Both the position numbers and the translations under genes were made by a program. The notes beneath the pieces were generated by a model. That model did not search any database. It saw nothing but the letters and a program-made list of their open reading frames with translations, and was not told where the DNA came from. A DNA stretch of 64,000 bases. It comes from Escherichia coli. Its GTDB lineage: Bacteria; Pseudomonadota; Gammaproteobacteria; Enterobacterales; Enterobacteriaceae. This document shows, piece after piece, positions 11,966 through 14,900 of the stretch; the stretch's first letter is position 1, and every line of letters starts with the position of its first letter. The stretch lies in assembly GCF_013315695.1 (NCBI RefSeq), contig NZ_CP054353.1; one strand, given 5' to 3'.

Positions 11966-14900
11966 TTACCATTTCACTGTCATCGACAAAAACCCTGCCG
12001 TCTGGGCAAAATCATCACTCCCTTTCTGCCACGCCACGCTACCACGCAGCGAAACTCGCTGACTGATATTGCCCGTTATTCCCACTTTTATTTCACCCCG
12101 TTGCTTCGCCGCATCGTCACTGATAGTGCTGCCATCTTCTTCAATTCCCGTCGAATGGGGATCGTGATAATAATTCAGATCTAACGTTGGCGTGACACCA
12201 ACAGCAGTACGCCATTCGCTGTGTAAACCCAGCCGCGTTTGAATATCATCACCCTGCGATTGTGACACGCGCGCATGGTTAGCGGCGGTAAAATCATCCT
12301 GCTGCACGCCCTGATAAATCACCTGCGTCTGCGGTTCAATCACCACACCATGCCCCGGTAACCACTGATAACCGGCTTCCAGCGAGGCGATAATCCCCGA
12401 CGAGTGGTAATGATCCACGCCATCGTCTTGTTCGGAAACATCATTGTTAAACCACACATATTGCAGCCAGCTATCCAACCAGGCCCCCTGCTTCTGATTA
12501 CCGTGCTGATACCAGCTTGAGGTCAGCCCAACGGCATAACCGTGGTTCTGGTTATCGGCGCGAGTTCCGGTCATATTCGAGCGGCTGTCGCCCTGGTTAT
12601 CGCTGTAGCCACCAACAATCCCAAGCATCCACTCGCCATCATCACCCCAGTGCCCGCTAAACAGGTTGCCGCTAAGCTGCACCGTAGAAGTGTCTTCATG
12701 CTGAGCCAACTGCCCTACCGCCGTGTAATGATAACGCCCGCCGATAACGCGTAAATTCAGCGTCTGACCATCGCCACCAGCGTGATCGCGTCGCTCCATC
12801 ACAAATGCCTGATTTGCCGCCCGCAGGTTATTAAAATATCCACCAACTTTGGCATTCAACACCGGCTGGTAGGCAGGCGTAGGTTCCGGGTCGGGGGTTG
12901 GGTCGGGATCCGGCGTGGGATCAGGATCTGGAGTCGGGTCCGGATCGGGCGGCGGCGTCGGATTGACTTCTTGCGATCGCAGATACCAGTCGTTGTTATC
13001 TTCCACCAGCGTATAGTCATACGCCCCCATATTGACGTAGCCGCTGCCCGCCAGACTGAACTGCGCATTGTTTTGAAATTGCGTTGGATCGGCTGCGAAA
13101 TCAACCACTTTAATGCCTGTAGATGTCGGCTCACCAATACCCGTAATGGGATTAATTACCACGGTCGTGTTGCCAGCAGTATTACCGTTCAACACCAGTT
13201 GGTCGCTTGCCGAGTCATCGCCGTTTAATTCGCTGTCGAGAAACAACGTACCGCCACCGGTGTAATCACCGTTTACCGTGAGCGTGTCGCCAGCGACGCC
13301 ATTTTGCAGACTGACAGCACCGGAAGTATTAGTTAGATCACCATTGACCGTCACGTCTGAAAGATAAGTCAGGCTGTCAGTTTCAAGGTTGGTATTAAGC
13401 TCGCCTGTCAGCGTCACACCATCGGTGGCATTCACCAACGTACCGTCGCCGCTAAACAGCGAGGCATCCAGCGCCTGGTTCGTATCCTGCTGCGTCAATC
13501 GCAACACAGTACCATCGGTTATGTCGATATCGCCGCCAGAGGTGGCATCGATTGAACGAATATCCTGATTTTGCCCGGTTTCAAAAACACCGTCTTCCCC
13601 CACCCACAGTGAAGAAACATAAGGAATAATATTCTCCGCTTCACCTTTTAGCGTTCCGTCCTCCACACGTACCGCAGACGTCGCAGTGCCGCTGGCGGTC
13701 AACTCAAGCGTCCCGCCGCCACTTTTAGTCAACGTGCTTACGCTATCCAGTTGTTGCCCGGTACTATCCGCCATCAACCCGCCCCATTGCGTATCTACAC
13801 CATCCTCAACGTGTATTTCGCCATCAGCGCGCATTTCAATATTCCTGCCCTGACCTGTTGTAGCCGAGCGAATGTCAACATCAGTCGTCACATCCATTTC
13901 ACTGTGTTGTTGGGGATCTGTGAAGATCACTGAACGGTTGTAACTTGTGTCCCCCAATTGCGAATTATCGCTGACTTCAAGCGTACCGGAGGCGATTTGC
14001 GTATTACCGAGATAACCGTTGTTATTCGCCAGCGTTACGCGCTGATCCCCCGCATTAATGACGACATAAACGCCATTCTGGCTGGCATCACTGCCGCCAA
14101 TATGTAAATCATCGCCACTGCTGATATCAACGACATCATTACTACCAATCACTGTCCCCCCGCTGCCGCTGATTTGCAGACCGTCATTGTATGAGCTATC
14201 GCCATCCCAGGTGGTGAAATCAGAGAGATCCAATACTCCGCTATTTAGCACGATCGATTGCGGATCGCTCTGCATTGCCCGTAAATCGGCCTGATTCCCC
14301 GCTAGCGACAATACGGCGTTATCTTCCACCACAATATCGCCGGTTAATGCCATCGACTGCGCCCCTGTCAGGAGATAGCTGCCATCTTGCGCTACCGTCA
14401 ACTGTCCTTCACCCTGAATCGAGCCGGAAAAACCGCCCTGGTTTACTGTAACATTGCCGCCTGCGTCGATATTCAAAATGCCATTAGCAAAACCGGTTAA
14501 TGAGTGCACAAACGTTTGTTGTGTATTGCCAACATTCAGTTCTGCCTGATACTCAGAATGAACAGTGCTGCCGACCATCAAACCAAAGCAATCCTGCGGA
14601 TCGCTCTGACAGTGCGTGTCGCCGACATTCATTAACTCATCGCTGCGCCCCAACGTCACCTCGCCATTCTGGATACTCATCTCGCCGGTAAACGCATTAT
14701 TGTCGGCATTGAGGACTAACTCTCCCGCTCCCTCTTTCACGATGACTCCCGTTCCGGCAAGAGAATCAATCGCGCCATCGTTGCTGGTATTGCCTATTAC
14801 CAGCGTTTTATCGGCGGCAATATTAAATTCAGCCACACTATGACCGATATACATAAAGCCCCCCGCCGCTGCCGTCGCCGAATGGTCATATCCCGAGGCG

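Follow-up and report, generated by a model that had tools for sequence, protein, structure and literature searches.

The yfaL locus and the position of its proline-rich tract

We examined a stretch of Escherichia coli DNA of 64,000 nt (contig NZ_CP054353.1 of assembly GCF_013315695.1), referred to here as the window, and concentrated on a proline-rich tract encoded within yfaL/ehaC, a gene for an autotransporter adhesin. An earlier note on the same sequence had named the gene and described the tract as a slippage-prone linker between passenger and barrel. The gene and the parts of the protein that frame the tract are listed here.

11966-15724, minus strand: yfaL/ehaC coding sequence, 3,759 nt, 1252 residues, AIDA-I-type (type Va) autotransporter adhesin (open reading frame list and translation, Pfam, RefSeq match)
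13007-13339, minus strand: autochaperone domain, Pfam AC_1, residues 796-906, E = 4.8e-18 (Pfam, matches to the IcsA autochaperone 3ML3/5KE1, model)
12875-12964, minus strand: proline-rich tract NPTPPP-(DPDPTP)x3-DPEPTP, NPTPPPDPDPTPDPDPTPDPDPTPDPEPTP, residues 921-950, 70% G+C (sequence check, codon table, model)
12809-12853, minus strand: predicted α-helix AKVGGYFNNLRAANQ, residues 958-972 (DSSP on the AlphaFold2 model, fragment residues 179-193)
11969-12763, minus strand: 12-stranded β-barrel translocator, residues 988-1251 in the model; PF03797 at residues 991-1230, E = 1.7e-31 (Pfam, model, Foldseek)

The gene name is confirmed by a RefSeq match that is 100% identical and annotated as "AIDA-I family autotransporter adhesin YfaL/EhaC". 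Pfam finds the Autotransporter beta-domain, AC_1, PATR and Chlam_PMP in the protein, with the PATR and Chlam_PMP repeats lying in the passenger, and the N-terminus, MRIIFLRKEYLSLLPSMIASLFSVNSVAEV, looks by eye like an extended signal peptide. Over its first 27 kb, the window differs by five substitutions and no indels from NZ_OZ547117.1, a UK blood-culture isolate in which RefSeq annotates the order ubiG - yfaL - ypaB - nrdA, the synteny of the orthologous K-12 yfaL. Of 5,426 complete E. coli genomes, 5,419 gave a match to a 451-nt query that spans the tract, and in every match listed the gene hit carries the YfaL/EhaC annotation.

We used AlphaFold2 to model residues 780-1252 from 70 homologues (mean predicted local distance difference test score, pLDDT, 94.5; predicted template modelling score, pTM, 0.89). 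In the model, β-strands run to about residue 920 and end with ...DNNDWYLRSQ directly before the tract. Residues 921-950 are without regular secondary structure (DSSP coil, pLDDT 74-86), and are followed by the helix at 958-972 and then by the 12-stranded barrel. The best Foldseek match, and the closest solved structure around the tract, is the AIDA-I transport unit (4MEE; template modelling score 0.92, root mean square deviation 1.8 Å, sequence E = 1.5e-38). Further matches are to the EspP, BrkA, NalP and Hbp barrels and to the IcsA autochaperone structures. YfaL thus has the parts of a type Va autotransporter, a PF03797 barrel with a preceding helix and an autochaperone that ends a β-helical passenger. 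The linker helix of autotransporters sits in the barrel pore (reviews PMC9289746, PMC3835316), and on the strength of these reviews and the 4MEE fold match the helix at residues 958-972 probably plugs the pore of the YfaL barrel. The tract lies between the autochaperone and this helix, and combines a high proline content and X-Pro periodicity with coil in the model. The earlier description of a passenger-to-barrel linker is correct by the flanking AC_1 and beta-domain matches and by the model; more exactly, the tract is an additional spacer that separates the autochaperone from the predicted pore-plugging helix.

Repeat structure of the tract

Proline accounts for 16 of the 30 residues of the tract, with strict alternation of proline and non-proline from residue 926 to 950. 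The repeated elements within it are the following.

12875-12946, minus strand: four 18-nt (six-codon) units, residues 927-950, three encoding DPDPTP with differing synonymous codons and the fourth DPEPTP (codon table, Tandem Repeats Finder)
12893-12904, minus strand: 12-nt unit GACCCAACCCCC, encoding DPTP, single copy in the window (sequence check, allele comparison)
12888-12907, minus strand: two 8-nt direct repeats CCCGACCC, at 12900-12907 and 12888-12895, 12 nt apart, which bracket the 12-nt unit (repeat search)

The 29-residue string quoted for the linker in the earlier note, PTPPPDPDPTPDPDPTPDPDPTPDPEPTP, is exactly residues 922-950 of the yfaL reading frame (window 12875-12961), and its 44-nt string is found at 12906-12949 on the plus strand. 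The interval that it had assigned to the tract, 12886-12962, was roughly right and missed 11 nt at the low-coordinate end, the true extent being 12875-12964 with the leading Asn. Its description as GC-rich also holds, the window as a whole having 50.7% G+C. The claim of near-perfect 12-nt repeats does not. Tandem Repeats Finder reports a period of 18 with 3.4 copies and 72% matches, and the 90-nt tract, compared with itself, is 68% identical at lag 18 and 69% at lag 36 against 50% at lag 12. This periodicity is beyond chance, since none of 10,000 shuffles reached the lag-18 identity of 0.68, and it is that of a coding tandem repeat with in-frame amino acid units, DPDPTP three times and then DPEPTP. 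At the DNA level the copies have diverged. The wobble positions of the three DPDPTP units agree in only 4 of 18 pairwise comparisons, and no exact internal repeat exceeds 8 nt, the length of the two copies of CCCGACCC, which are the likely slippage substrate. The tract of the window is a degenerate coding minisatellite, a repeat at the protein level with old, diverged DNA copies, and not a microsatellite-like perfect array. Being imperfect and of 18-nt period, it is therefore much less prone to slippage than the earlier note implied.

Length polymorphism among E. coli genomes

We determined tract lengths in RefSeq assemblies of "complete genome" level, which supplied all length calls. All complete E. 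coli genomes were ranked, and two systematic samples of 60 genomes each were taken from the ranking at regular intervals. Most sampled genomes were assigned to a length class by the net span of their match, and representatives of every class were fetched. The counts were as follows.

30 residues: 40 genomes in sample 1, 38 in sample 2
24 residues: 13 in sample 1, 14 in sample 2
32 residues: 5 in sample 1, 5 in sample 2
22 residues: 1 in sample 1, 2 in sample 2
Other length: 1 in sample 1, 1 in sample 2

Both samples show four length classes, and targeted searches add three rarer ones, giving seven in-frame lengths in complete genomes: 22, 24, 26, 30, 32, 34 and 38 residues. The commonest are 30 residues (~65%) and 24 residues (~22%), these frequencies being estimates for the 5,419 matching genomes from the systematic samples and identity bands. 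Allele-specific queries place the 24-residue allele in ~1,200 genomes and the 22-residue allele in ~212. Among the rare classes, 26 residues is found in at most ~60 genomes, 34 in ~30 and 38 in a single genome, that of the canine strain 1105. In the fetched alleles every length difference lies inside the tract and keeps the reading frame. The polymorphism between strains that the earlier note had foreseen is thus present, and the comparison of repeat number that it had proposed shows lengths that differ rather than an identical number in all strains. Our literature search found no paper that combines yfaL with "proline-rich", and the length polymorphism of the tract is apparently undescribed.

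A full-length alignment of nine alleles (1,260 columns) contains only two indel regions. The tract has at least five gap patterns across these alleles and a passenger site at residues 544-558 has three, so that the tract, which is 2.4% of yfaL, holds most of the indel diversity. Of the two regions, the passenger-to-barrel spacer is the more variable, in an adhesin gene that nearly all E. coli carry.

At the passenger site (window ~14051-14095), the lineage of the window carries two additional residues, GGSDASQNG against GGD--GKDG, and strain GN04592 is without 15 residues relative to the window allele. A larger change was seen in strain VTB97022v (NZ_CP178670.1), where an in-frame deletion of 168 nt removes ~56 residues and the gene is still annotated as intact. 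One side of the junction is the ADPT of ...FAADPTQF..., which lies a short way downstream of the AC_1 match; the other is a PDPT within the tract, and the two are joined at a short GATCC-type microhomology. The last modelled strands before the tract, which end in ...WYLRSQ, are lost.

Assembly breaks in the tract

Assemblies from short reads (SKESA/NCBI, Logan, ENA SPAdes and metagenome scaffolds) often end or are N-gapped inside the tract, and in one N-gapped E. coli scaffold both ends overlap within it. Hundreds of "partial YfaL" database proteins come from contigs that start or end here, and these entries are therefore artefacts of the breaks. A word-indexed protein search yielded fragments for the most part and no full-length YfaL cluster, and was left out of the allele counts. 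Two different assemblers have given Shigella sonnei drafts whose contigs break off at ...GGATCCTG and resume at CGGCCCCT..., and complete Shigella genomes show that the gap between the contig ends is 15 nt, ACCCAACCCCCGACC. An expanded array or an insertion sequence (IS) in the S. sonnei tract, at which the many partial proteins had hinted, was ruled out, since the complete Shigella genomes have an ordinary 30-residue tract.

In view of these breaks, the length polymorphism itself might be no more than an artefact, produced when a difficult G+C-rich repeat is sequenced or assembled. The 15 nt missing from the S. sonnei drafts and the truncated or gapped E. coli drafts and metagenomes would speak for this. 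The length calls come only from complete-level assemblies, however, in which tens to hundreds of independent genomes share the identical sequence of each common class and the indels are always in frame with clean unit boundaries. We consider an artefact very improbable as an explanation of the polymorphism; the singleton 38-residue allele could be an error. A consequence of the breaks is that typing of alleles or copy number requires complete genomes, long reads or polymerase chain reaction (PCR).

We also searched for canonical G-quadruplex motifs, defined as four runs of at least three G with loops of 1-7 nt, for which shuffled sequence gives ~1.2 per window. The sole such motif on both strands of the 64-kb window is GGGTCGGGGGTTGGGTCGGG, at 12888-12907 on the plus strand, antisense to the tract. 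The motif overlies the very 12-nt unit that has undergone expansion in the 34- and 38-residue alleles, and the core missing from the S. sonnei drafts is its complement. K-12-type alleles are without a canonical motif. Alleles that lack it break in assemblies too, and the G-quadruplex was rejected as the sole cause of the breaks. More speculatively, non-B DNA formed by the C-rich/G-rich core could drive both indels in vivo and the dropouts in short-read data.

Origin of the length changes

We compared the alleles with respect to their repeat units. The 12-nt unit GACCCAACCCCC, present once in the window, occurs as two perfect tandem copies in the 34-residue alleles and as three in the 38-residue allele of strain 1105, which lies on the same flanking haplotype as the 34-residue allele of strain MS1170. 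The 34-residue state is found on at least two flank haplotypes. The 26-residue allele equals the 32-residue allele minus exactly one 18-nt unit, lost between adjacent units that share the 11-nt sequence GATCCTGATCC, and the 24-residue allele holds an exact 18-nt duplication (two copies). Whole-unit differences with breakpoints at direct repeats therefore account for the 12- and 24-nt gains and the 18-nt loss. With this series of one, two and three copies, the unit loss and the duplication, slippage as the source of length change, as proposed in the earlier note, is at least partly borne out.

Recombination has also left its mark. Strain 2016C-3878 is a mosaic with a window-like 5′ half-tract and a K-12-like 3′ half and flank, the 22-residue allele has window-like sequence upstream and K-12-like sequence downstream, and the breakpoints of such mosaic haplotypes lie inside or beside the tract. 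YfaL of the window is 82.6% identical in amino acid sequence to that of K-12, and 97-98% identical to those of 2016C-3878 and 1105. The allelic lineages of yfaL are very deep for a near-universal E. coli gene, and the mosaic haplotypes indicate recombination between them.

Occasional replication slippage in frame, or unequal recombination, between direct repeats of 8-11 nt changes the tract by 6, 12, 18 or 24 nt in either direction, and homologous recombination then shuffles half-tracts among the allelic lineages. The outcome is a few discrete length alleles, of 22-38 residues, that track their flanking haplotypes. After a perfect duplication of a unit, further expansion is observed, as in the step from one to two to three copies of GACCCAACCCCC. 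Constraint at the protein level appears to act on composition and approximate length and not on exact sequence.

It could instead be that the length classes are a few ancient alleles maintained and spread by homologous recombination only, possibly under diversifying or immune selection that acts on a segment exposed at the surface, with no ongoing slippage. The depth of the yfaL lineages, the mosaic haplotypes such as that of 2016C-3878 and the presence of the common alleles in hundreds of genomes would all suit this explanation. It is at odds with the perfect-copy series on near-identical flanks in MS1170 and 1105 and with the exact duplication in the 24-residue allele, both of which are young events because their copies are undiverged at every site, and also with the occurrence of the 34-residue state on more than one flank haplotype. 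We regard spread of ancient alleles without slippage as unlikely.

Rate of change

The tract is a slowly evolving indel hot spot and not a hypermutable locus. Among the matches listed, the K-12-lineage rows (~80, with some genomes in both lists) all span 508 nt, and strains evolved in the laboratory or passaged through mice are among these derivatives of constant span. The rows come from two synthetic queries, one with an eight-unit tract and one with no tract, designed to draw out the longest and shortest alleles; BLAST joined the pieces and ranked the matches by flank identity, so that those listed are K-12 relatives and bear on stability in K-12 alone. All sampled O157:H7 genomes have 30 residues, with a lineage-specific Pro-to-Gln change, and so do all complete Shigella loci with an extractable tract. 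The common alleles are nearly identical across hundreds of genomes, and the tract alleles go with their flanking haplotypes.

A contingency locus, in which a hypermutable repeat switches or rapidly alters YfaL by slipped-strand mispairing, would combine a long perfect array of a short unit with a shift of frame or promoter spacing and frequent change within a clone. The G+C-rich, periodic nature of the tract might suggest such a locus, as might some database proteins whose frame shifts within or shortly upstream of the tract and which then end directly behind it at ...TSRC. In place of a long perfect array, the longest exact repeat of the window allele is 8 nt and the lag-18 identity is 68%. 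The unit is a multiple of three, the indels of the complete genomes examined all come in multiples of 6 nt that preserve the frame, and no out-of-frame allele was found among these genomes. Within clones, the evidence, which is at the population level, is of constancy in K-12 rows and in O157:H7. Most of the frameshifted products stem from assemblies of short reads or metagenomes, and such assemblies demonstrably fail in the tract. Phase variation was rejected because the repeat is imperfect, its unit is a multiple of three and the complete genomes examined hold no out-of-frame allele; it is largely refuted by the in-frame units, the stability in K-12 and the linkage of alleles to haplotypes. 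A contingency function of the tract is highly improbable.

Eight database proteins with a frameshift inside or just upstream of the tract terminate at ...LPTSRC, some of them on contigs of up to 1.08 Mb. These could be genuine pseudogenes, or the stretch, which is hard to sequence, could have left errors in the consensus.

A predicted spacer and its relatives in other autotransporters

In the proposed arrangement, a (Pro-X)n spacer, with Asp, Thr or Glu as X, would join the autochaperone end of YfaL to the barrel-plugging α-helix. With proline at every second position neither helix nor sheet is possible, and the tract most likely adopts an extended, acidic, polyproline-II-like rod. An extended polyproline-type chain rises ~3.1 Å per residue. 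The 30-residue spacer would then measure up to ~9 nm, and the natural alleles ~7-12 nm if fully extended. Such a rod would distance the β-helical adhesin from the barrel, the membrane and the lipopolysaccharide (LPS) surface. The literature on YfaL covers adhesion phenotypes (PMC7864753) and classification (PMC9289746), as well as surface-display studies.

We also considered whether linker length is adaptively tuned, such that the 22-38-residue alleles match the thickness of the O-antigen or capsule of their respective lineages and the β-helix of YfaL just clears the layer. This is a doubtful proposition, and a quite improbable one in our judgement; if true, the degenerate repeat would be an evolvable "length dial" retained for this use, with alleles that differ by up to ~5 nm if extended.

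To place the tract in its family, we compared the C-terminal 441 residues, from the autochaperone domain to the C-terminus, with 1.84 billion cluster representatives using HMMER and took the best 150. Of these, 72 have a strong proline-rich, mostly X-Pro segment of 6-62 residues that ends 304-365 residues from the C-terminus, and most of the remaining representatives have at least a short P-x-P motif at the spacer position. In the nearest homologue outside E. coli (55-57% identity), the linker is rich in P/D/T/V and about as long, with a different sequence and period. The tract of YfaL is one example of a common, length-variable module in which composition is conserved and sequence is not.

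Several known proteins carry comparable segments. TonB, with its rigid (Glu-Pro)n/(Lys-Pro)n segments, and secreted enzymes with Pro/Thr-rich interdomain linkers use X-Pro repeats as extended spacers whose length varies between homologues. The resemblance to the YfaL tract is one of working and not of homology, as the proteins, compartment and charge pattern differ. Pertactin of Bordetella pertussis varies between alleles in how many copies it has of short, in-frame repeats that contain proline (regions 1 and 2); these lie in passenger loops, are immunodominant and have undergone allele shifts in the vaccine era. Pertactin and YfaL are both autotransporters with in-frame proline-containing repeats of variable copy number; the repeats of YfaL differ in lying in the passenger-to-barrel spacer and in being without evidence of immune selection. 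The existence of prn allelic variants is noted in one report (PMC2631898).

A parallel in position is TibA, which like YfaL is an AIDA-I-type adhesin and has a proline-rich domain (residues 627-677) that separates its junction region from the domain embedded in the membrane (PMC3835316). The TibA segment sits at the same place as that of YfaL, is longer (~50 residues) and has another sequence. Cote and Mourez are said to have found in 2011 that deletion of the proline-rich region of TibA abolished adhesion but not invasion. This outcome would, by analogy, fit a role of the YfaL tract in presentation and argue against one in secretion. Our literature search found no report of strain-to-strain length polymorphism for the linker of either TibA or YfaL.

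Taken as a whole, we consider it probable that the tract is a (Pro-X)n passenger-to-barrel spacer, encoded by an old degenerate repeat that changes length by slow in-frame slippage and recombination, without phase variation. Some observations weigh against this account. The 22-residue allele arose by a 24-nt deletion with only 3-nt microhomology, and a +6 insertion of PA/PD requires an additional substitution; both are unlike simple slippage of units. Recurrent slippage and the spread of a few old alleles by recombination can be separated only in part. With a fairly high pLDDT of 74-86, the tract may pack against the protein instead of standing as a free rod, and our literature search found no experiment on the YfaL linker, whose spacer function is a prediction. 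Finally, where YfaL has 30 proline-rich residues, the alignment gives AIDA-I a short non-proline segment, so that secretion in the family does not depend on a long proline-rich spacer.

The feature is an ordinary one, a proline-rich spacer with slow in-frame length polymorphism, and reveals no new mechanism. Its natural series of 22-38 residues could serve to test whether the length of a spacer affects the exposure of a short adhesin through LPS or capsule, and spacer length is relevant to surface-display vectors based on YfaL.

Disrupted yfaL alleles and neighbouring reading frames

In complete Shigella genomes, an IS3-family transposase insertion in the passenger region splits yfaL. The break in S. 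sonnei lies just upstream of ...ADGKTLVIG, and other Shigella lineages carry further disruptions. The gene is decaying in Shigella, although the tract is intact.

On the plus strand, an antisense open reading frame of 148 residues with a GTG start (12782-13228) spans the tract opposite yfaL; we attribute it to the G+C-rich codon pattern, as a side effect. Beside ubiG, the genes for a GntR-family regulator and a major facilitator superfamily (MFS) transporter (window ~8763-10090 and 10284-11026) are annotated as frameshifted pseudogenes in NZ_OZ547117.1, and their counterparts in the window are presumably frameshifted pseudogenes likewise.

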